A stretch of DNA of 61,065 bases, the filler included, from Dugesia japonica (Eukaryota): the NCBI GenBank assembly GCA_001938525.1. It is 6 parts of 6 records of this genome, joined end to end, with 100 filler letters (N's around TTAATTAATTAA, not from the genome) between each part and the next. Parts side by side here need not be neighbours in the genome. Positions count along the whole stretch, not along the records: positions 42,603 to 52,726 come from MQRL01578042.1; 5 more parts are not named here. One strand, written 5' to 3'. The first letter of the stretch is position 1. Every line of letters begins with the position of its first letter. This document shows positions 13,218 to 55,868 of this stretch, in pieces. Made by a program: the position numbers and the translations under genes. The notes below the pieces were generated by a model. The model did no database searches, was not told the origin of the DNA, and saw only the letters and a program-made list of their open reading frames with translations.

Positions 13218-13261
13218 NNNNNNNNNNNNNNNNNNNNNNNNNNNNNNNNNNNNNNNNNNNN

Positions 13262-13273
13262 TTAATTAATTAA
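13262..13273. other. Artificial scaffold linker TTAATTAATTAA flanked by N runs (also 22285-22296, 33371-33382, 42547-42558, 52771-52782)
   Basis: The identical six-frame-stop 12-mer sits between N runs five times, at 9-11 kb intervals. Confidence 0.95.
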
Positions 13274-13317
13274 NNNNNNNNNNNNNNNNNNNNNNNNNNN
13301 NNNNNNNNNNNNNNNNN

Positions 13318-19699: not shown

Positions 19700-20330
19700 T
19701 TAGGCCCACCATTAGTTCTGTCATCTATCAATAAAATATATTAAATAGAATTATACTTGGGAGTCACCCAGAAATTTATCCAACAAAATTTTACGTTGGA
19801 AAATATAATCTTTTAATTCAAGAGGATCATGTTTTAAATTTATTCTGTTGATTTCCTCGTTGGCCGTTGAAATATCGGCCTTGTTCTAGATTTTGTAATG
19901 TATTTATTAATACTTCATAACACTCTTTAACGACCAGCAAATTCTTCTTTAGACTGGGTTCTGCCAATGCTGATTTTGCCTTGTTAACAAGCACACCATA
20001 AACTCCTATATTTGATACAATGTTCTTAATCGCAGGAAGGTTGTTACAGTAGTAAATTACTGCTCGTAACCAGCTTGTCCATCTTGTCAAAACCACTGAC
20101 GGTGGACTTCCAATTTCATAAAATAGATTTTGTTTTTCTTTATTTTTTATTGTTAGCGCTTTTAAACTCCCAATAACTTTATCAATATTTGCATAGGCTG
20201 CACGAATGCGCATAGAACAGTTATGAATTAAATGGGCAAGACATTTTACACATAGAAAATTATGATTTCTTGATTTGTATACTTCAGCAGCCTTTTTCAT
20301 ATAAAATAAGCATCATAAAACTGGAAGTTT
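19700..20330 (-). pseudogene. hAT-like transposase fragment
   Basis: CLAHLIHN (CxxH motif) and PPSVVLTRWTSWL (TRW motif) in ORF 19827-20300. Confidence 0.7.
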
Positions 20331-22240: not shown

Positions 22241-22340
22241 NNNNNNNNNNNNNNNNNNNNNNNNNNNNNNNNNNNNNNNNNNNNTTAATTAATTAANNNN
22301 NNNNNNNNNNNNNNNNNNNNNNNNNNNNNNNNNNNNNNNN

Positions 22341-25519: not shown

Positions 25520-27723
25520 TTACGTATTATAGTATTTAAAAAAAGGCGCGATCTTATTTTGGTGCAAAATTTACTGCATACTCTAAACACGCGTTCTGTA
25601 GACGTAGGTTTAATACAAAGAATTGCGTTTTATAGTTTTTGTAGGTTTTCAGTTCTCTTACTTGTAATTTTGAATAATGTAAATTTCGATTTGAGCCACT
25701 TAAACTCTGATCCTAATCCTGAGAAATGTTCTGATAATTTATCTTTTTGGAGAAACATATTTAATTCATCTTATAATGATAAATTTTCATTTTTGATCAA
25801 TATTCAACGGTTGTTGAGCCGCTTCAGCTATATCAGTAACATCAAAAGGACAAGAGGCAAGATTTTCTGCAAATGTCAGTATGGGTTTTGATTGGGTAAC
25901 AGTTGGATCCTTAAGGCTTCGCAATAACTTCATTACATCTTCATTTATTCTTTCATCTACACGAATTTTTAAATGGTCCATAAGTTTGTTACTAAAGTTA
26001 CTGTTTATGTCAGAAAGTTTCATAAACATAAATTGCAAAATATTTTCGGCGCTTACTAATGTTGTATCTTCGTGACTGAAATTATCGACAACTAATTTTA
26101 CAGATTCCATTGCTCTGTGTAATAGTTTAGGAGCAAAAAAACCAAAATCTTCAATTATGTTTAATGCTTGAAATTTAATTAATGTCTCCCGAATCGCTAT
26201 TTCCGTTTTTATCAGTAGCTCAATCATATTTGGAATAGAATTCCATTGAATTTTAATATCGAAATGCAGTTCTATCTTGTGGCCTATTTCTTCTTTTACT
26301 TTGCCTAGAAACACATTGCGAACCGCAGATTTTTTGATAAAGCTAACAAGTTTCCTTGACTTCTCTATTAGATCGTGATAATAAAGTTCTTGCTCTATTG
26401 CATCATTACTTAAAATTTCTATATTCATTCCATAATCAAATGTGTCAATCTCATTAATATCATCAATTTCATTACTATCCATAATTTGATCATCATCATC
26501 CTCATCCTCTTGAATATTTATTTTATATAATGTATCATATACTCTTAAATGCAAAGCATGATTTAAGAAAAATTATCTGATTATATCCATATGTCATATA
26601 AATATTTTTTATTGACAGCAGCACTGTAAATCCAACAATGTTTTTAGCTAAATTAACTTAAATTTGTATTTTATCATAACAAAAATTCATTTCTAATCAT
26701 CATAACATAAATTTATTTAAATGATAAATTATTTGTATTGAGAAACTTTTTATTTTTGACTTCCAAAAACAGTAAAAATAGTTGGAAATAAAACAGCAGT
26801 TTTACTGTTACTATTTAACAGTTTTGAAAAACCCTAAATAACACACGTTGTATTGATAAATCATATTGCTTTTTATCCTATTCCTGACATGGAATGGATT
26901 TTTTGGTGATACCATGCCTTTGTCAGACAAAGATTTTCGAAAAAATTCAATTTTGGATAAAGCATTTATGGTAAAACTATCCACCATGGCTAGCTTTCAT
27001 ACAATCTCCTCGATAGTTTGCTGTTTAATAAACGTATTGATTTTTCTTGGCACGTTGTCTGTTTCCACTCCAACGTTTTTATGTTCCCGTTTAATTCCAA
27101 ATTCTTTGTGGGCGTTATTTAAATGACGAAGAAGCCCACTTGTGGAAAACCCTTTGCACATTATCTTTTTATTGCACTTTTTGCAAGTGACAGTTTCACT
27201 ATTTTTTCCTTGGTAAAATATTGCCATGTCTTTGATCCTCCACTTACTATCGACATGATTATAATAACGGTTTTTTCATGAAACTAATTTAATCGATTTT
27301 TGATAGCAGTAGTCTAAAGATAATTAAAAAATCGATAAATGAAACACAAATATAATTATAAAACAAATAGACTATTACAAAATGTTCTTACTTACATTTC
27401 GATTTTGATACGTTAAAATGTATACATTTAAACTACAATTATTTCAAATAAATTCAATAAGCTATTAATAACTAACTCGTTTTTCAAAGTTTTAAACTGT
27501 ATTGCACTCTTCACTCTTCTTTATGTTTATGAATAAACTATCTTGCATAATTAAAAAAATTATTTGTCAAATGTAAAAAATTGAATATCAAAATAAAAAA
27601 GGAAAACCCAAAAATTTAAGAAATTAAATTAAACAAAAAAATTGGTTTCCCGGGATATATTCATTATATTCCGGGATATCCCGCTATCAATTTTATCCCC
27701 GGGATCCCGTTTAAGAAACACTA
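25520..27723 (-). mobile_element. Decayed hAT transposon with BED zinc finger, containing a nested small insertion (~26570-26840)
   Basis: TIR TAGTGTTTCTTAAACGGGATCCC. BED finger CKKC..STSGLLRHL..H, then HALHL, DIKIQWNS and C-terminal IKPTSTERVF. Confidence 0.85.
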
Positions 27724-32873: not shown

Positions 32874-33327
32874 TGTTGAGGTGAAACACCCAGTGGAATG
32901 AGAAATAAAGTTAAAGGGGATCCAAAATCATTCGCAGTCAAAAGAAAAATAATATTACGGGAAGGAAAATCAAACAAGAATCAGGACCATGGTAATAAAC
33001 AAAGATGGAAAGACTCAGACGATTAAATTAAGTTGGATTAATTAAAATAATCAAAAGAATTATTAAAATTAATAAAGAAAACGATTAACAGAAAAAGAAA
33101 TAATTACAAGAAATTGTCATTTAATTTAAAACAAAAAAGTAATTAAATTTGGGCAGAAATTCGAATTATGACAATAACTTCGCTCCAGATAATCACAGGA
33201 GGATGGCTCAAAAAAATCTCAGGAGAATTTCAGTAAAGGCATCGGAATGTTATCATCAAAAATCTCAACCATGATCTGGAAACCTTCAGCAGGGATTTGA
33301 AGATTGAGCCAATGGCAAACTTGAAAN
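32874..33327 (+). mobile_element. 5' part of a probable LTR, related to 20445-21436
   Basis: TGTTG start and colinear similarity to the reverse complement of ~21020-21436. Confidence 0.45.
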
Positions 33328-33591
33328 NNNNNNNNNNNNNNNNNNNNNNNNNNNNNNNNNNNNNNNNNNNTTAATTAATTAANNNNNNNNNNNNNNNNNN
33401 NNNNNNNNNNNNNNNNNNNNNNNNNNTTACAAATGAATTTAGTATCTTGGTGGATTATTTGTTAAGATTCATAACAAAAGTAAATAATAATTGCAGTAAA
33501 CAGAATTATATTTATATAATATGCATATTCTATCATCTATCCTCTTTTTCCTTTTGAAAATGTGCATGGTGGAATACTAATGCATCTCTGA

Positions 33592-41785: not shown

Positions 41786-42602
41786 NNNNNNNNNNNNNNN
41801 NNNNNNNNNNNNNNNNNNNNNNNNNNNNNNNNNNNNNNNNNNNNNNNNNNNNNNNNNNNNNNNNNNNNNNNNNNNNNNNNNNNNNNNNNNNNNNNNNNNN
41901 NNNNNNNNNNNNNNNNNNAAATTTTCTTTAACTATTGAAGTTGATAGATGACCAAAATGACTATATATTCCATTTTAAAATCGAATATGATAAAAAATTG
42001 ATACGAATAACCAAAGAAACTATATATTAAAGATAGGTACATTAAATTGAAATTAATAGTAACTAAAGGTTGGACCAGCATACGTGAAAAGAGTTTTTTC
42101 AATTATGAATTTCGCGCGAGTTTAAAAATAAAGTCTTTTTATCAAAAAAACTTTTTGAACACATTAGTATAACCAAGTATTCACTTTTAAAACCGAGTGG
42201 CATTGCATAACTAATTTAAAGTANNNNNNNNNNNNNNNNNNNNNNNNNNNNNNNNNNNNNNNNNNNNNNNNNNNNNNNNNNNNNNNNNNNNNNNNNNNNN
42301 NNNNNNNNNNNNNNNNNNNNNNNNNNTGGCTAACTGTTGGTCTTTACATATTTTGAGACAATTTCCCAAAGCACAAATTTAACAAGAATCGTATTTTATT
42401 AAATTACGGATAATCTTAATTGATATTATAATTGTTTTGAAATAAAAGTATTCTAAATTCAAAAACACTTAAATGAATAAAACCAATCAGAAATTAAAAT
42501 TCNNNNNNNNNNNNNNNNNNNNNNNNNNNNNNNNNNNNNNNNNNNNTTAATTAATTAANNNNNNNNNNNNNNNNNNNNNNNNNNNNNNNNNNNNNNNNNN
42601 NN

Positions 42603-43050
42603 GCTGCTTCTATTGGTTGATCAATCACATGTCCTTTCTTGGCAATAACTTGAGTCCCATGTTTGATGGTAATTTTCCCGGTGGCAAATCCTTCATCGCA
42701 TTGTTGTCCGGTTAGATGTACAGAATGTCTCACTGTTTCTGGGTCAATGATTGAAGTATAACTGTGATATCCACAATGAAATATGATGTTTTTACCGTTA
42801 CTGTACATTCGCGTACTTGGGCCTTATAGTAATCAGACTCTTGATATAAATGGTAGACGGAATTATTACGGAATGAGATTTTCTCCGGGTTTGCGTCTGG
42901 ACATTCTTCTGTATCCACTAACGAGAATACTTCCTTCCCAACTTGCATTCCATCGCATTCGTATGCTAGTATGGCTTCACTTCTGCCCATCATTAAGAAT
43001 AACAAGAGTATTGTAGTGGTTAACGCTTGCCAGGAGTTTCGACGAGGTCC
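42603..43050 (-). pseudogene. env: Envelope glycoprotein N-terminus, chuvirus (Jingchuvirales)-glycoprotein-like, with internal signal peptide
   Basis: RRNSWQALTTTILLLFLMMGRSEA / ILAYECDG..FSLVDTEECP..HLYQESDY..RECTVTV(K)NIIFHCGYHSYTSII..QQCDEGFATGKI after repairing one frameshift in an A-run at ~42790. Confidence 0.75.
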
Positions 43051-43129
43051 ACGTGTCCATCCATTCTCGATCTCATTTAACTGATCCCGAACAATCCTGA
43101 TTACTCTAGTAGCATTTTCATGAGAGGGC

Positions 43130-43530
43130 TGAGGTTTAGGGCATATTGCCTCAATAAACTTTTCCCATCCCCCATGCTGTTTTATNNNNNNNNNNNNNNN
43201 NNNNNNNNNNNNNNNNNNNNNNNNNNNNNNNNNNNTTTGACGGCTTGCTTCTAGCGATTGTTAGGTGTGTTTGATTAATCAGATGCGCTATGGATACTAC
43301 TATCCTTCCCTTCGTTGGCTGCTCTTGTAATAATTCATCCATTACCCCTTTTAAATTATTTCTTGTACCATGACTGGTGCCTTTAGTGGCGGGAAATTTC
43401 CTAATGGCTGCCTCTATTTCCTTTGCCAATGGCCTAAGACTATCAGATAGCTGAAACTTTCCAATCCATATTTTTAACTCTGGGTATAACATTAATAATA
43501 ATTGCCGTATTACTACTTCGGTTGGCATGT
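43130..43530 (-). CDS. Bcl-2-like domain within ORF2 polyprotein
   Basis: BH3-like LRPLAKEIE, BH1-like VMDELLQEQPTKGRIVVSIAHL, and BH2-like IKQHGGWEKFIE (43150-43185, read in the glycoprotein frame just after the N gap). Confidence 0.7.
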
Positions 43531-44344
43531 CATCATCTGTTGAATTTTCGTGGTATCTTTCTTGTGATACCGTTGCTAGTCGCTTAGTTTGATGGTTTAT
43601 TGATGTGGTTAATCGTTTTTGTTTTAAGGCCTCTGGGTTTTCCGGGGGCTTGGTTCTTGACCGACCTCTATTACGAGGTTCCGTAATTGTTTCCGCATCT
43701 ACTCGGGTGCGTACTGGCTTTGGCAGTATTTCCTCGTCTTCTATTTCTATCGGATTTTCCATCTCTAGTGAGTGGTTTGTATCCATCAAATCATCTATTA
43801 CCGAAGATGGCAATTCTTTTGCTATTCTGCTTAATATTGGTGACAATGGTTGGTCTTCCAATATGTCTTCCTCGTCCAAGTCGACCTTGCTAGGGTCGTA
43901 TTTTTTACTGCGTGCTGGTTCTTTCACCTTGATTTCTTCACTTTTTCTAGTTGGAGGAGAATATTTTGTAATTTGTAAGTCGTCTTTGTCTTCTGCTGAC
44001 TCGTCTGCTGATGGTGATCCAAATATTTCACGTTCCCAATCTTGGCTTGTTTTAGGAGTTTCTTTGGTTTCCCGGGACGCTTCAGTGCTTCCAGATTGAT
44101 CTGTTGTAGGTCTTAATATTTGACTAGCCGCTAGTTGTGTACGGTGTTTATATGCTTTTAACATACCGGATGTCTCTCCCATTATTGGTCTGGTTTTATC
44201 TGCTGCTTTATAGGGATCTNNNNNNNNNNNNNNNNNNNNNNNNNNNNNNNNNNNNNNNNNNNNNNNNNNNNNNNNNNNNNNNNNNNNNNNNNNNNNNNNN
44301 NNNNNNNNNNNNNNNNNNNNNNNNNNNNNNNNNNNNNNNNNNAG

Positions 44345-47300
44345 TTTGTATGGTGGTTTAAATGGCAACTTGTCTCGTAGTTGTTTTACCGTATTATACA
44401 CCGGCATTTTAACCGTGATTTTGTCCCCTTCTGGATCGATTATTCTGAATTTAACTTCCAATGGCGTGGGTTGTCCCATCTCCGCTTTTCTCCATTTAAC
44501 TAGAATTTTACTAAACTGAACTGGATCCCATACATGTGCTACTTTGATAGCTAGTATTAATCGTCGCAATTTTCTAAGATCTTCTACTGCCAAATCTTGT
44601 TGTAAGGCTATATTGTATCGTCGCATGATTTCCGGCTTTATTAACTTATCGCCTACTAGTAATTCGAACAATTTCGGTAAATTGTCTTCTGGTTTTTCAT
44701 CTTTGACCGGGGTGTTGGTCAGAGCTGCTCCCATCTATACTCTTTGATTATTTTGCTCTCGTTTAGAGAGTTTAGCTCTAGCGAATATTAATGGATGTAT
44801 TTCTTCCAGGTAATATTCCACTAACTCCCTAGCTTCCTGCTTCCATTTTTCCTCCGAGACCCGTGGTCGTCGTCTCTTCTCATCCCTTGATGTTAAATAA
44901 ATTTTTAATTTAGTACCTGGCCAAACCCCCATATATTTTACTGGCAATCTCATTTGGTCTGATTCTATTACGTGGCTGTAATAGAGTACTATGTCGTCTT
45001 CCTGAACTGATGTTTGCAATCCAGTTTCCTCCTCGTTAAGGCTACGTTNTTGATTCATAAATTTTACAATCCTCTTCCGCAACTTAGCCCATGGTTCGTT
45101 CATTTGGACCTGCCAACGAATTTCAGTTTCGTCGGGAAATCTGATTGTTACCGTGACGGCTTCGTTGGTTATCATTCAAACTGTGTTATTTAATATTGCA
45201 TCCATTATGTCTTCCGGCATTTAACTTATGGCTCGTAATTGATTTAGCTCTAGAACTAATTCAATGACTTTGTCATGTCTTAATAGTTCCAAGTTTTCTT
45301 CCAAGGTTAAAAGTATTTTCATTATTACTCGCGCCAGACTTCCCCATGTTTTACTGTCTTCCCATAACTCAATATTTATCTGCATTGTTCTGTCATTGAC
45401 TACTTCGAATAACTGTCCACTGTTAATTTCTTGTTCGTATAGTTCCTCTAGTTGTTGTATTACTTCCTCCATAGATTTTACCGGGCCTGGAATGTAATCC
45501 TCTGGTTTCTGTATTTGGAGAAATGTATTTTCTCCGGGTCTTAATCCTACATCCATTAAATGTTGTTTTCCTTCAAACTTTATGGGGAATCTCAGATGAT
45601 CGCTTGTGATTATATAGCTTTTCTGCTGGTCGGCTATATCCAGTGTTTCTATAATTTCTTGTAATTCCCCCGCTGATGTACTGTTAAAATGTGGTATGTG
45701 CATGACAGTCAATTCCGGTTCCTTTCTGGTTTTTTTTGTTTGGTGTCAGATATTTTATCGTGACTTGAAAATCTTCTCCCCTGGCACTTGTTTTCACTGC
45801 ACCAATATACGACTTGATTACTGATTCCTACTTGGCACAATCTTCTCTTGCTATTTCAGTATACTTTGTTAGATACATTAGTAAATTTAATGCTTTCCAA
45901 AATGCTACTCGAGGTATCCTTTCCTTGAAATAACAAAAATCCGAAATTATCTTCGATATCCGCTCTGCCTGCGGCGAACTGAAAGGGCCAGCGAATTCAT
46001 GTTTAAATGGTTACAATCGGGGTTGACCAATATCCTCCGAGATTTCTTCCTCCTGCTCTTCTTCATCTGAGGTTAGGTCTGGTGTGTCATGGTCTTTACT
46101 CCGAACCATGTTTATTTGGGCTTTATTTTCGCCATAAGTGTTTATGAGTCGTTCATTCTCTACCGGTAGTATTTCTTGTAGATATAAGCTCATCATGTTA
46201 AATATGAGTTGATCGGTATCCGGCATTTTCGATATTGGGATGTCTACGGTCATTTTACGCGATGTTAGTTTGATTTCTGTGATCTCCCTTGGCTTGATAT
46301 CATGCAAAAAGATATGGTCCTCTTTCTCGGCTAATATAATCATTGTTGCTCCTGCTTGCATTTTATAGGACTTGAGCGATTTTGGTCATAGCCATTTCTT
46401 GATTGGTTTTATGATATGGTTGATCGTTAGTCCTTCCAGCGTTATCATATCTACCTTTTTTATGCTTCCCTCCTTACTAAGTAGGCTGACTCTGATAGAA
46501 TAGTCGGATATAGTGGATGTATTCTGTACTTCCTCTTCGTANNNNNNNNNNNNNNNNNNNNNNNNNNNNNNNNNNNNNNNNNNNNNNNNNNNNNNATTGC
46601 CAAATCCCGTAAGTTATTCATCATTTTCCAATATACTTTGATATTCACGACTGGTCGCGTTTCTCGTGTTACTCTTAGTAGATCATTGATAGCGTGAAAC
46701 GTGGCGGATTCCTCCGTTATCGGTTTGGTATAATTCATCCGAATATCGCGTATTGTTGGCGTGCCTTCTGGGAATATGACGGATTTTGTAGTAATTATTG
46801 GCAAGTTATCGATATTCTGTATTTTCTGATTCTCTTTTACTTGTTCCTTTATGCCAGTTAATACCTCGGATACGTATAATTCTGTTATCTCTTCCATTCG
46901 CTCCTCGAGATCCGGTGATTGATTCGTCCGTGGCTCCTCGTCTACATCTAACTCACATATTTCTCCGGGCTTTGCGTGGCATTGAAATATGTGTTTGTCC
47001 TCGTCGTTGATCTCAACCAATTTGCCATTTATGAACAGAGGTACCATGTTTAGCCCTAGTTCTCGCCACTTATCGGTAATGGCATCAATTAAATCCATCA
47101 TGGTTATTCCTTGTGGTTTTAACCGACTATATTTAGTCAGTTCCTGTTCATTTTTACCTATATTTAAATATAATTTATAATCCTGAATTTTGGTAGTTGC
47201 CAATATCTCTTCGGCATATTTCTGCCTAATCATGAGCCATTGGTTCTCGATTTCCTCCGGTATTTCTAGTCCATCATATATGTCGTAGATTCTATTCATT

Positions 47301-48047
47301 ATCATCCAATAGGTTTCTCGGGGTAAGTTCTCCTTCTCCATCTGTACTCGGTTAACCATTTCCTCCACTTTACGCATTGCTACTACCTCTCTTGATGGCA
47401 TCTGTTGCATTCTTATCATGTTGCATTTGCCCTCTCTTCTCTCCAATCGCTGCCTGAGGAAGTCGTTAGGCGTCATTAACAACTGTTTCCTCTCTTTCTT
47501 TGTCAGTTTATCTTTCTTCGCGAGTACCGTGGAAAGTATCTTGATTTTAATTGGTAATACTCCTGGTTTATATAGATATTCCATTTCTCCCATGATTTCT
47601 AAAGCTGATCTTCCGGTTTTTGTTATCCAGATGTCATAGTCAATACCGGGGTGTTTGTCCAATACTACGATTTCAATGTCCTCTCCTAGTTTTACTCCAA
47701 AATCGTATAGATGTTTCTTTCGGGCGTTAAAATCTATCATAGCACTTGGAGTGCACACATATGTATCAGTTATGCATGGATAACCTGCTTGATTAAGCGC
47801 CGCCTCTAGATCTTCTACCATTAATCCCGTGAGGGTCAATTTCATGTTACCTTCTGGGCTATATAACCATACTTAGTAATCTGATGATTCCATGTTAGAT
47901 ATTACCCATTCATAATGCACTGGTAACCATTCTGTCCAATCGGGCGTATTCTGGTATTTCCCTTCAGTTTCTATTTCTTCTTGATTCATTTCTAAATGTG
48001 AAACATTGATTAACTTCCCCGTGGTTTTTATCTATATACATATTCAT
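44345..48047 (-). pseudogene. ORF2 polyprotein N-terminal part: six ~230-aa repeats each beginning with a ubiquitin-like (beta-grasp) domain
   Basis: Recurring end motifs KHLYDFGVKLGEDIEIV, KHIFQCHAKPGEICELD, DHIFLHDIKPREITEIK, QHLMDVGLRPGENTFLQ and LPVKYMGVWPGTKLKIY, each followed by an E..ELY..E helix. ORFs 45221-45712, 44735-45175 and 43151-44734 share one frame. Confidence 0.7.
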
Positions 48048-48094
48048 TAAGTAAGTTTACCATTTACACTACTTACAGGTAATTTCTCTTTATT

Positions 48095-49700
48095 TTAAAA
48101 TACCAATATACCCGGTGCCTGGTAGTGTCTAGGCACATACATTGGTAATTCGTGAGGTGCGTTTCCTAGCGGAATTCCCGAATAGTTTGGTGGAGCTAAT
48201 CGTAATTGTCGCTCCCGTTTGCTGCGGTGGTGTTTCTCTTTCTTTGGTTTTGAAACAAGTAGACAAATAATGCTTATTATAAGCACCGTAATAATAATTC
48301 CTCCGATACCTAACGCATAACCTAATTCATAACTTCTTGTTGGTTGAATTGTGGTGGTTCTCATAGATTCTGTAATGGATTTTTCTATTATTTCTATGTG
48401 ATTCCTTCTTGGTTCAAATTTGCTTAAATTTGACATCCAATTGTTCAGAAAATTTGCTCTTTTTTCTTCCTTCTCGCGATTCTGTGTTGTGGTGGTTATC
48501 TGAATTTTGGTAGTATTTGCTAACTTGGGTATGTTTGTGTGTATGGGTATTTTGGTAGTCCCTTTTTGTTTTCCCGTTGCCTTGGTTTTTATTATTATAT
48601 CTTGGTTAATTACCGTGATAAATTCAAATCCCCATAAATCTTTGTCAAATTCTCNAATATTCATCTCTTGATACATTTCCCTTCTCCAATAATCTTTAGT
48701 ATTGAATCTCCATCCCCACTCATCAAGATCCTTGATCGTATGTATTAACAATTGTTCCACCTTCTTCACGAACCGTACATAGTACATACCCTTAATTTTT
48801 TTCACTTGTAAAGAATATGGGCCCGTTGCCAATATGGTTTCCACCCCTTAAATTCTTGATTTANNNNNNNNNNNNNNNNNNNNNNNNNNNNNNNNNNNNN
48901 NNNNNNNNNNNNNTATGGAATGTACTTCTCGGCCCTGAGTGACTGTTATGCTCTTTTGTCCTATTTCTACCCCCTTTTTATTCCATAATTCTGTTTCGTA
49001 TTGCATGCGCTGCCATATAATCGTATGGTACAGGTATTCACTTTTTGGACATATTGTCGTTATTTGTCCTCCGGTATCATTTCGTATCCATTCTTTGTGC
49101 CTGAAGTTATTTTCTACATAATATAATACAGAGTTACTTCCTCGTGATACTTTGAATTCTTTACTTGCTTCGTAAATTAATGGGTTGTTCGGATTTCTCC
49201 ACGTTATGTCCCATACTTTTTCTATCTGCCACTTGTCTATATTGAACCCCAATAATCTTCCTTCCACTGGTTCTTGGCTGAGGAGTTGTATCATAATCCT
49301 TCCTTTTGCTCGGTGTAGTTTAATCATGGTGCTTTTTTGACTTTTTATCACTGGTGTTAAAATTAATTGTCCGTAACCATACATTGCTTGTGTTTTCTGT
49401 TCCCTCTGAAATCCTAAACGACTTATTGTTATGACGTGCATCTTTCCTTCCTTGATGAGTATTCTATGTTCCGTTAAGACTGGTTCATTTACCCAGCATT
49501 CTTGACCTCCGATCCATCTTAGGATCATTATTATAGTGGTTATTATGATTTGTCCACTGGAAATTCCATTCTGAGAAGTTACTTGTACCTGTTGCATTGC
49601 TAAGGTTGGTAACGAAAGTCCTACTAGAATTAACAAAATTAATTAAGTAAACAAAATTAATATGCCATAATACCAACTTGTGTTGATTACCGCCCATAAC
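48095..49700 (-). pseudogene. Type-I membrane glycoprotein at the C-terminus of ORF1 (signal-like segments, ectodomain, Thr-rich stalk, TM helix, PPxY tail)
   Basis: Hydrophobic LILLILVGLSLPTLA and IIITTIIMILRWIGG, sequons NDT/NTT/NLS, stalk TTKIQITTTTQ, TM LGYALGIGGIIITVLIISIICLLV followed by KPKKEK, and PPNY at 48182-48193. Confidence 0.7.
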
Positions 49701-50069
49701 ATCAGGGATGCTTTGACTATTATTTCTTCTGTAATCTCATTCTTGCTTCCTTGTGGTAACTCGTTTTTTGATTTTCTTAGTTTTGATCGATCCACCACAT
49801 CTTGTATCAATGTCATTTTCATTTTTTTCGCCCTTCCAGGCGTTATTCTGACTGATTGTCTCTCTTCTTTTTCCATTCCATCCCCTTGACCGTGAAATGA
49901 TTGTCTCATCAATTTCACTTGTTTTTCCAACCCTTCATTAGGATTCGCGATACTGATTGGTTTCAATTTCCTACAAGCCAATTTGTCTGATCGTATGTCT
50001 AGTAAGGTCATATTTTTTGTTTGTGTTTACTTTGAATAGGTGGTTCGACGATTGGATATCTAACTGTTC

Positions 50070-51390
50070 ATACACTCTAATCCAGTTCCATTGTACTAGC
50101 GTACGGTGAAACACATGTATAGATGTTAGTAATTCTTGACTATAAATATCTGTGCATGGCATGCATAATTATTTTTATAATAAATTGACGAATTGGGGCT
50201 TGAACCGGCATTTTGATTCGAGATCCATCACAGTCTTTCCTTAACCGATTTTCTGGTCTGGATAACCACGCTTTTTGATTGTAAATGGCCTTTAGTGCAT
50301 TTTTAAATATTATCTGTGTTTGTCGGATACATTGTAAACAACTCTCTTCCAATTGCAGTGCTGACAGTGGACAAGTTATTTGGTTAATGTGATTGCAACT
50401 TTCTTTGTATCTTGGTGTCTGGCTCCCCTGGCAAGTGATCGTATAGCATGTAGTGGCATTCATAGCTTCAATTGCCAGAGGTCGACGCATTTGATTATCT
50501 AAACCAAAAGATACGGTTTTAACTTCTTGTGCTATAATGGCTGATTTATCATTAATCATAGATGATGTTATTGGAGTTTGAGAAGTACGAATAATACTTG
50601 GTGTCTTAATTATTTTAGGCATAACCAATTTATTCGAATTATTCAATTTGGTTGTGATTAATGCCATCTTTCCAGTATCCGTGTTTTCGTTGTTGATTTT
50701 ATTATGAAAATCCTGACCTGATGCCCCGCCATCTTTCAGTTTCCTTTCTTTCCTCTGTCTGTCTGCGTATTTTAATACGCCCTCCTTCAATAATCGCGAT
50801 ATTTTTTTCAACTCTGTTTCTATCTTTTCATCTTCTTTTGATTGTAGGTCCGCTTTCTCTTCCGAATTCACATCTTTCTCCGTTAGTTCCCCTTCCCCAT
50901 CTTCTTCAGACTCAGCGTCCTCGCTGAGACGTCTCTTCCTTAATAATGATTCTAGCCCGCTCCATGGTGGAGGGTCAACTGGTTTAGACCATAATACCAA
51001 CCAGTCTCATACTATTAATATCGTGTGGAAGTTCTCAATAGCTCGAGTGAGGGTTTCATTATAAATACTGACACAACGTTCGCATAAGGTGTGTATTTCG
51101 TCTTGTTCCAATGGTACTTGAATTGTTAGCTTGTCATGCATTTTCGCACATCGTTTTCTACTGAGTTTATTTTGTTGTAACAACTCAAGTCTGCGACTAG
51201 CGATTTCCCGCAATGTTGATTTCAAAAATGATTGCAATTTCCATATGCATGCAAGGCAATTTGCCTCGATTAGAGTTGGTGAGATTGGGCATGTCACCTG
51301 AGAGAAGTGCGCACAACAGTTCTCGGGCACTAGTGCCTGCGTTCCTCGTGGAATTATAGGATATATTGCCGTGGTACCCAATGCTTTAAC
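50070..51390 (-). pseudogene. Two copies of an unrecognised ~125-aa Cys-rich domain separated by a charged/low-complexity linker (ORF1 extension)
   Basis: CAHFSQVTCPIS..CLACI..RKRC..LCERCVSIY..FHTILIV*DW aligns with CNHINQITCPLS..CLQCI..RKDC..LCMPCTDIY..FHRTLVQWNW. Confidence 0.75.
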
Positions 51391-51479
51391 TCGCTGGCTT
51401 AATTGACCTAATATGAATACTGGGGTGGATATTTTCCCGAGTATCATTATAGCTTGTTGTGATCGTAATTGGTAACTAT

Positions 51480-52726
51480 TTAACTCCAGATTTTCCGACT
51501 TACGTGGCCTACCTGGCCCTCTATGTTCCGTCGCAGTGGGTGCGGTACTTGTGGATGGCGCAGTTTCATCGCCGCCTTTTTGCATAGGTTGGCGTCGTAT
51601 ATCTTTGGTTTTTCTAATAGGTTCCCTTTCCTTCGAACTTTGAGATTAGTTTCCGTTACTTCACTTACTTCATATGGTCCTTGCCATGGCCTTTTTAGTT
51701 TTGATGTAGTGCCGACACAAATGGCTGGTAAATTGACCAATACCATGTCGCCTTTTTTAAAGGAATGCTGCACTGCTGATTTATCTTGTAAATCTTTATA
51801 ACTCTCCTGGTAAAACCCTACATTCTCCTTGACTTGTTTCCATATTTTCTGCATAGTTTCTTTGAAATTTGCAGCGAAATCTGTTTCGTCTTAGTATTGT
51901 GTTATCAGTGGTTGGAATTCCAAGTCAATGGGCATGTTACACTCTCTGCCGTACATAAGACCAAACGGAGTGTATTTTGTTGCTGGATGTACACTCATAC
52001 GGTAGGCAAATAAACACAGTTGAATATGTTTATCCCAGTTATTTCGTTCCTTTTGAGCGTAACTGGATAACATATTGATCAAGGTTTTATTAAATCGTTC
52101 CATTAATCCATCTGTTTGTGGACGATAAGGTGAGGTTCGTAACTGGTGAATTTTGAGGAAGTTCGATATTTCTACTAATATGTTGCTCATAAAGTTCTTC
52201 CCTTGATAGGTCAATATTTTCTTTGGTGTGCCATATCTGCTGAAAAATTTTCGTACCAGAATATCTGCTATGTAGTCGCTTTTTGATTTTTCATAGGGAA
52301 TGCCTCTGGGAATTTCGACAAGTAATCCATGATTGTTAGTATGTAGATGTTTCCACTCAGCGTTGGTGGTAACGGTCCAACTACGTCTATGGCTATTATT
52401 TCCATAGGTGCGGCGGGGACGGCTATTGGTTTTAATAATGCTTTCACGCGTTTACCAGTTCCTCTTCTGGCAAAACATATTTGACATTCGGCGATCCATT
52501 CCTTCACTGTCTCTGTCATGTGGGGCCAGTAATACTTCTGTCTTAATTTTGACTCGATTTTCTTATGGGACATGTGTCCTCCTAGTGCTCCGTTGTGATA
52601 TTGCTCGAGTAATTTATCTCGTCTTGCTTTAGGAATGACTAATACAGTATTTTCAGCCATCCTTTAGTGACTGCATAACGCCCTCCGTTTTTCTTTAAGT
52701 GTTCTTTCATCTTGGGTTCGCATTCT
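51480..52726 (-). pseudogene. pol: Ty3/gypsy integrase (HHCC, D,D35E, GPY/F) followed by an AT-hook
   Basis: HNGALGGH..YYWP..CQIC, IAIDVVGP, LTYQGKNF (second Asp mutated), YRPQTDGLMERFN, KLKRPWQGPYEV, and RGPGRPRK at 51499-51522. Confidence 0.95.
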
Positions 52727-52826
52727 NNNNNNNNNNNNNNNNNNNNNNNNNNNNNNNNNNNNNNNNNNNNTTAATTAATTAANNNNNNNNNNNNNNNNNN
52801 NNNNNNNNNNNNNNNNNNNNNNNNNN

Positions 52827-55818: not shown

Positions 55819-55868
55819 NNNNNNNNNNNNNNNNNNNNNNNNNNNNNNNNNNNNNNNNNNNNNNNNNN

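Follow-up and report, generated by a model that had tools for sequence, protein, structure and literature searches.

Does a planarian locus that reads into a viral-type glycoprotein also encode a Bcl-2-like protein, split by an assembly gap, and does the hydrophobic stretch between the two serve both? The stretch of DNA analysed (the window; 61,065 nucleotides, filler included, from the Dugesia japonica assembly GCA_001938525.1) is joined from six parts, one of which (MQRL01578042.1, positions 42603-52726) carries the locus. An initial annotation had proposed that the end of a 527-codon ORF and a second frame beyond the gap together form a Bcl-2-like domain, the tail anchor of which may double as the signal peptide of the glycoprotein. 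All of the peptides that it quoted were located at their positions on the minus strand. Helix 1 (from 43528), the BH3-like segment (from 43441) and the BH1-like segment (43354-43280) are in the frame of the 527-codon ORF, and the BH2-like segment (43185-43150), the hydrophobic stretch (43032-42985) and the SEA tripeptide ending at 42973 are in another nominal frame, which is open into the glycoprotein.

The element that carries the locus

The block at 42603-52726 has a G+C content of 32-39% and its minus strand is nearly all coding; the rest of the window (20-31% G+C) is A+T-rich and eukaryote-like, with many gaps. In the reading direction, the block comprises an integrase, approximately 3.6 kb of accessory ORFs, repeat units, an acidic linker, the Bcl-2-like segment and the start of the envelope gene (Env), as presented in Table 1. 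Both of its ends are contig ends, at 42603 inside Env and at 52726 just upstream of the integrase, which is truncated on that side. Paired runs of 44 N flanking a 12-base stretch were observed at 13218-13317, 22241-22340, 33327-33426, 42503-42602 and 52727-52826. The 12-base stretch at 42547-42558 and at 52771-52782 is an all-frame stop spacer, which indicates artificial joins, so that the flanking parts are not necessarily adjacent. Among several dispersed repeats, ORF remnants resembling DNA-transposon transposases were read by eye on the minus strand at 25787-26572 and 19827-20312.

Table 1. Features of the block in reading direction, with the evidence for each
Feature	Position	Strand	Evidence
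Ty3/gypsy-type integrase, in pieces (H2C2 zinc domain, rve core, GPY-like motif)	51480..52663	-	Pfam Integrase_H2C2 E 7e-19, rve_3 E 6.5e-4, rve E 2.6e-3; GPY motif read by eye
Two accessory ORFs (212 and 288 codons)	50140..51645	-	Duplicated domain of ~125 residues, containing Cys/His, common to both; phmmer E 1e-16
Accessory region resembling a type I membrane protein	48095..50026	-	Hydrophobic stretches; interrupted by stops and a 50-N gap
Region of 4-6 weakly self-similar units of ~75 residues	44348..47990	-	Self-comparison E 4e-4 to 0.05; interrupted by stops and gaps
Acidic Pro/Ser/Thr-rich linker of the 527-codon ORF	43529..44219	-	By eye
N-terminal half of the Bcl-2-like domain	43238..43528	-	Predicted helices; BH1-like segment
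Assembly gap, 50 N	43186..43235	.	Contigs join both sides in order, no length given
BH2-like segment	43150..43185	-	BH2 matrix rank 1/50,578
Hydrophobic stretch, preceded by basic residues and followed by a small-residue site (SEA)	42973..43032	-	Hydropathy; start of PF24664 alignment; cleavage site inferred
N-terminal part of a class III (gB/chuvirus-type) fusion glycoprotein	42603..42972	-	Pfam Monjiviricetes_fusion (PF24664) E 2.4e-8 and 1.4e-5, model positions 5-80 and 80-131

Contigs matching positions 42610-44210 numbered 5224, 3259, 2310 and 3277 in four DNA runs of one organism and were mostly 90-95% alike, and in a fifth DNA run 17,212 contigs matched the whole block; these counts point to a large dispersed family. 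The copy itself is damaged, with stops at, for example, 44735, 45221 and 47873, and with an Env that is frameshifted near 42780-42790 and cut short at 42603. No second copy was found within the window, and an Rfam search gave no match. No RNA data set was listed as containing the sequence. RNA reads matching the block, each of them a partial fit, numbered 42 of 13.6 million in one run, 2 of 11.6 million in another and 0 of 10.5 million in a third; these runs may lack the organism, so the counts are no sign of silence.

The initial annotation had drawn a parallel with the Bcl-2 mimics of large DNA viruses. An origin from such a virus was rejected because the integrase, the high copy number and the type of Env point to an LTR retrotransposon. 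The block represents one broken copy of a Ty3/gypsy LTR retrotransposon that is present in high copy number and likely belongs to the planarian Burro/errantivirus group.

Pfam returned no family above the cut-off for the 212- and 288-codon accessory ORFs. The region at 48095-50026 is a possible second membrane protein: behind a hydrophobic leader come a middle part rich in beta structure, a single transmembrane stretch and a cytosolic tail, in which a PPxY motif is found; Pfam and PDB sequence searches with it gave no significant match. Pfam matches to BIR, MATH and ankyrin were absent from the sequenced part of the element (42603-52726). The repeat region likely begins a separate ORF, a Met being present approximately 100 bases past the preceding stop. 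Each unit (44348-47872) has a similar Gly-containing strand at its end, then an acidic helix, and by eye the units are possibly ubiquitin/SUMO-like. The sole Pfam candidate for them was UCH_UBL1, at a weak E of 0.12, and an ubiquitin HMM gave nothing under E 2. The single-sequence model made for this region was of low confidence (pLDDT 51.8), with a best Z of 4.5 to unrelated chains, and ubiquitin chains were absent from the matches listed, which at this confidence speaks neither for nor against the identity. A thioredoxin reductase match (PDB sequence search, E 0.03) was taken as chance. No Pfam match was obtained for the linker.

Resemblance to Bcl-2 at the BH1 and BH2 motifs

A Pfam check, which the initial annotation had expected to bear on the Bcl-2 family (PF00452), returned no family for the 527-codon ORF at E up to 1, and none for either half or for a reading bridged with X across the gap at E up to 10. 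PDB sequence searches gave no Bcl-2 chain and nothing significant. The Bcl-2-like half had no match among 1.84 billion representatives, and was found neither within longer proteins (0 of 28 candidates) nor in metagenome contigs (0 of 518 stretches); homologues of the post-gap ORF were likewise absent from 85 longer proteins and from four viral contigs. The single-sequence model of the N-terminal half showed helices that are interrupted at the TKGR motif. Its confidence was low (pLDDT 51.5), and Foldseek gave no match to it at E 0.001; no Bcl-2 chain was among those listed, which with such a model speaks neither for nor against the fold. P450-like Atlas clusters proposed for the segment (0.92-0.93) were rejected, with just 108-115 of 256 features in common.

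As these library searches were blind to Bcl-2 at the locus, motif matrices were built from a fetched family. Six viral Bcl-2 loci were fetched, and four of them served as the query for the best 120 of 608 family proteins. Position-specific matrices were derived from those 120 proteins, which are mostly vertebrate Bcl-2 and thus give a narrow profile, and were scored at all six-frame positions of the window, with BH2 taken over the 12 positions outside the gap. The BH1-like segment ranked first of 23,115 positions, with 10.8 bits against 6.7 for the next best, and the BH2-like segment also ranked first (Table 1), with 18.7 bits against 12.2. In residue shuffles of the ORFs of the element (n=2000), the BH1 score was reached in 12 and the BH2 score in one; the pair score of 29.5 bits was reached in none, the best shuffle giving 23.0. 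When the whole window was shuffled (n=100), the BH1 score was reached in four shuffles and the BH2 score in none. The BH2-like piece was also the best of 1223 six-frame pieces with the Bcl-2 HMM, at a weak E of 2.3, and hhalign aligned the N-terminal half to the BH1 register of four viral Bcl-2 proteins, again weakly (E 0.014, probability 3%).

The claimed resemblance of the BH1-like and BH2-like segments to Bcl-2 is therefore above chance, as both rank first and no shuffle matches their pair score. Judged from sequence, the resemblance is real at the level of two ordered motifs. The proposed BH3-like and BH4-like helices did not stand out from background, in matrices dominated by vertebrate Bcl-2. 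The best BH3 and BH4 matches at the locus ranked 179 of 36,708 and 270 of 39,065, on segments other than those proposed, and the Gly-Asp signature of BH3 was absent from the Bcl-2-like segment. The replacement of NWGR by TKGR in the BH1-like segment was confirmed; the Arg of the BH1 motif and the GGW core of BH2 are retained. Since several formal tests of Bcl-2 membership were negative, the domain is named Bcl-2-like here.

Chance similarity between a helical accessory domain and Bcl-2 is a highly improbable explanation. It would account for the missing library hits and for a low-confidence fold that matches nothing, and the motifs were chosen by eye ahead of the test and score far below true members (10.8 bits versus 59-77 for BH1). 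Both motifs are nevertheless top-ranked in the window, their order is correct and their spacing is close to that expected, the pair score lies beyond all 2000 shuffles, and a BCL2-like motif has been published at the same place in Burro (PMC6431247).

Reading across the gap and into Env

The gap had been described as about the size needed for helix 6. This is not a measurement: the 50 N represent no measured length, because another gap of this size (48864-48913) was bridged by two contigs with approximately one letter between, and ORF calls across 50-N gaps are therefore unreliable. Three gaps of exactly 50 N were present in the window, at 48864-48913, 43186-43235 and 55819-55868. Over the gap in the Bcl-2-like domain, contigs joined 42914 to 43383 in three of four runs, 43101 to 43236 in two and 43122 to 43236 in one. 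No short joint was seen among the contigs listed for this gap despite the higher depth, which suggests that the true gap is not near zero. With the gap at its nominal length, the BH1 Gly and the BH2 Trp would be approximately 47-48 residues apart, versus 48-51 in the 119 of 120 Bcl-2 members that allowed a count.

The nominal frames differ between the two sides of the gap. Codon-position variation was assessed at the 40 best-supported of 303 variable places considered, with four beyond the Env frameshift region left out. In the pre-gap frame, 19 of the 28 listed places fell on third, eight on first and one on second codon positions (p 2e-4), and within the Bcl-2 half 9 of 12 fell on third positions (p 0.004). 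The eight listed places of the post-gap ORF were divided between third (four) and first (four) positions, with none on the second. Both proposed frames thus look to be under constraint. No Met was found in the known post-gap bases ahead of the hydrophobic core. The lack of a post-gap Met, the codon-position variation in both frames and the published in-frame order of Burro argue that the Bcl-2-like domain and Env are probably translated as one precursor, which would be read in a single frame across the gap.

The two might instead be separate products, with Env translated from a Met in the gap or from a spliced RNA and the hydrophobic stretch acting as an ordinary signal peptide with no anchoring role. 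The differing nominal frames and the modest hydrophobicity of the stretch (approximately 12 hydrophobic residues; best 19-residue hydropathy 1.52, versus 1.95-2.17 in four Bcl-2 tails) would fit this, as would the finding that gypsy Env proteins are mostly separate ORFs (PMC6431247). The BH2-like segment, however, is in the frame of Env, with the stretch starting 45 residues past its Trp (approximately 25 in Bcl-2), so that a separate start of Env would split the Bcl-2-like domain in two, and in Burro the region is in one frame (PMC6431247). Separate products are accordingly considered improbable.

The motif statistics and the PF24664 match, which is above the cut-off, support the proposal that a diverged Bcl-2-like domain directly precedes a viral-type glycoprotein. 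The further proposal that the stretch is a Bcl-2 C-terminal tail anchor, which has approximately 20 hydrophobic residues, did not hold, as the stretch is shorter and is not C-terminal. The PF24664 alignment begins at the stretch (model position 5). Given this alignment with the start of the glycoprotein model, and a length and hydrophobicity below those of Bcl-2 tail anchors, the stretch is best read as primarily a predicted internal signal sequence of Env, which fits better than a tail anchor.

The domain resembles the Bcl-2 family (PF00452) in having a BH1-like segment followed by a BH2-like one, spaced approximately as in the family (a distance that depends on the gap length), in its predicted helices and in having a hydrophobic stretch downstream. 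It differs in having TKGR for NWGR, in lacking a BH3 or BH4 signature and in falling below all library thresholds. Its hydrophobic stretch lies approximately 20 residues further from BH2 and is followed by a large ectodomain, unlike a true C-terminal tail anchor.

The signal sequence of Env may plausibly tether the Bcl-2-like domain as well. In the flavivirus capsid anchor and in the hepacivirus core, an internal signal sequence doubles as the anchor of the upstream protein. The topology predicted here is alike (cytosolic protein, hydrophobic stretch, signal-peptidase cut, luminal glycoprotein), but the upstream partner is a capsid in those viruses and a Bcl-2-like domain in this element. Literature searches found no published description of an anchor/signal shared between a Bcl-2-like domain and Env.

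Gene order and relation to Burro elements

The Burro elements of planarians are gypsy-like, are present in thousands of copies and carry a SUMO-like motif, a BCL2-like motif and an Env (PMC6431247); the BCL2-like motif was first noted by Grohme et al. 2018, as cited in the same paper. The Burro Env, which has matches to mononegavirus fusion proteins, is placed between BCL2 and the protease in a single ORF of 4,873 residues (PMC6431247). The layout of SUMO-like, BCL2 and Env is therefore already in print for Burro. Like Burro/GYPSM1 as described there, the element has a gypsy-type integrase, many copies, accessory ORFs and a BCL2-like motif immediately before Env, and it shares the order of repeat region (possibly ubiquitin/SUMO-like, an identity read by eye here), BCL2-like segment and Env. 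This likeness was drawn from the published description of the elements, and the comparison of layouts covers Burro1 and a Dugesia tigrina element.

In the published account, Burro1 and a Dugesia tigrina element have the cassette in frame between Gag and Pol, whereas here it comes after the integrase and approximately 3.6 kb of accessory ORFs. The cassette also seems to have its own start, whereas that of Burro is run within one polyprotein. Env was thus not found in the Burro1 position, the integrase being upstream of the cassette in this assembly. This gene order may be an effect of the assembly or may reflect a different Burro family, and a cassette after the integrase, rather than between gag and pol, may be a new difference.

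Six gB-type errantiviruses of Schmidtea (Smed_errantivirus_1-6) have been described in a survey in which every flatworm element has the order GAG-ENV-POL (PMC13524379). According to the same paper, the ectodomain of a gB-type Env has a signal peptide or a transmembrane stretch at its flanks. The text of that paper and seven of its supplement files make no mention of Bcl. When the second piece of Env was compared by eye with the six Schmidtea rows, 22 of 58 residues (approximately 38%) were identical to Smed_errantivirus_5 and the same number to Smed_errantivirus_6, within the 27-64% range among the six, and the N-terminal Cys/His pattern of this gB-type Env was the same. The element is identical to none of the six, which differ from it in gene order, and from the Env identity it is likely another family of that group. 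The likeness of Env and the A+T content both point to a planarian host, a planarian genome with over 70% A+T being on record (PMC11410931).

The integrase-first order could be an artefact, with the 3' end of one element joined to the middle of another through nested or collapsed repeats, the true order being GAG-ENV-POL as in all of the flatworm elements of the survey (PMC13524379). The assembly of this high-copy repeat is fragmented and gap-rich, and DNA depth over 48011-51390 is several times below that of the integrase or of the Bcl-2/Env part. The depth declines gradually, however, with no step, coding is near-continuous on a single strand, and no gag or LTR-like stretch was seen between the parts. 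Contigs also link 50929 with 51440 and, as a weak hint given a short side of 28 letters, 43118 with 49849. The survey itself limited the distance between POL and ENV to 1000-2000 bases at most and looked for no other orders, so that an integrase-first order would have been missed (PMC13524379). An artefact thus retains an appreciable chance, and the integrase-first order is somewhat favoured as real.

Our overall reading, held with reasonable confidence, is of a broken Ty3/gypsy copy, likely of the Burro/errantivirus group, in which a diverged Bcl-2-like domain precedes a gB-type Env, is likely made with it in one precursor and, as a captured domain, most likely modulates cell death. An intact copy would use the hydrophobic stretch as an internal signal sequence that threads Env into the ER during translation, with signal-peptidase cleavage near SEA. 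This would leave the upstream part, including the Bcl-2-like domain, on the cytosolic side, where the short remnant of the signal would hold it at least transiently. The cleaved upstream protein would then be arranged like a tail-anchored protein, although its insertion would be co-translational and its anchor short and possibly transient. An animal host is the likely source of the Bcl-2-like domain, which most likely would benefit the element by restraining the death of expressing cells, despite the loss of the canonical NWGR and BH3 signatures. We are less sure of this anti-apoptotic role than of the overall reading.

Several poxviral proteins with a Bcl-2 fold work as a scaffold or a signalling decoy. 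The domain here might similarly have kept the fold and lost the regulation of apoptosis, serving as a scaffold on the membrane side or as a decoy, for example by lining the membrane at which Env buds. The replacement of NWGR and the absent Gly-Asp signature are consistent with such a role; co-translational insertion into the ER would keep the domain from mitochondria, and its position ahead of Env is fixed in this copy and in Burro (PMC6431247). The retained BH1 Arg and BH2 GGW core speak against it, and Burro1 also has an IAP, through which it is reported, second-hand, to protect stem cells in an anti-apoptotic role (PMC13465017). A scaffold or decoy function therefore appears doubtful, and modulation of cell death is preferred.

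The locus adds no new kind of system, and the copy is broken. Retrotransposons with captured apoptosis regulators are rare, and the BCL2-like module of Burro-type elements has so far, as far as literature searches show, only been annotated. What the present locus contributes is independent support, from statistics and in another family, for the resemblance to Bcl-2, together with a proposed shared signal/anchor topology that can be tested. In a bolder and rather unlikely version, a distinct Burro-like lineage moved the cassette of repeat units, Bcl-2-like domain and Env from the Gag-Pol polyprotein to an ORF of its own after the integrase, with the signal sequence of Env as the membrane anchor of the Bcl-2-like domain. 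If so, each envelope protein made would deliver one ER-tethered modulator of cell death.
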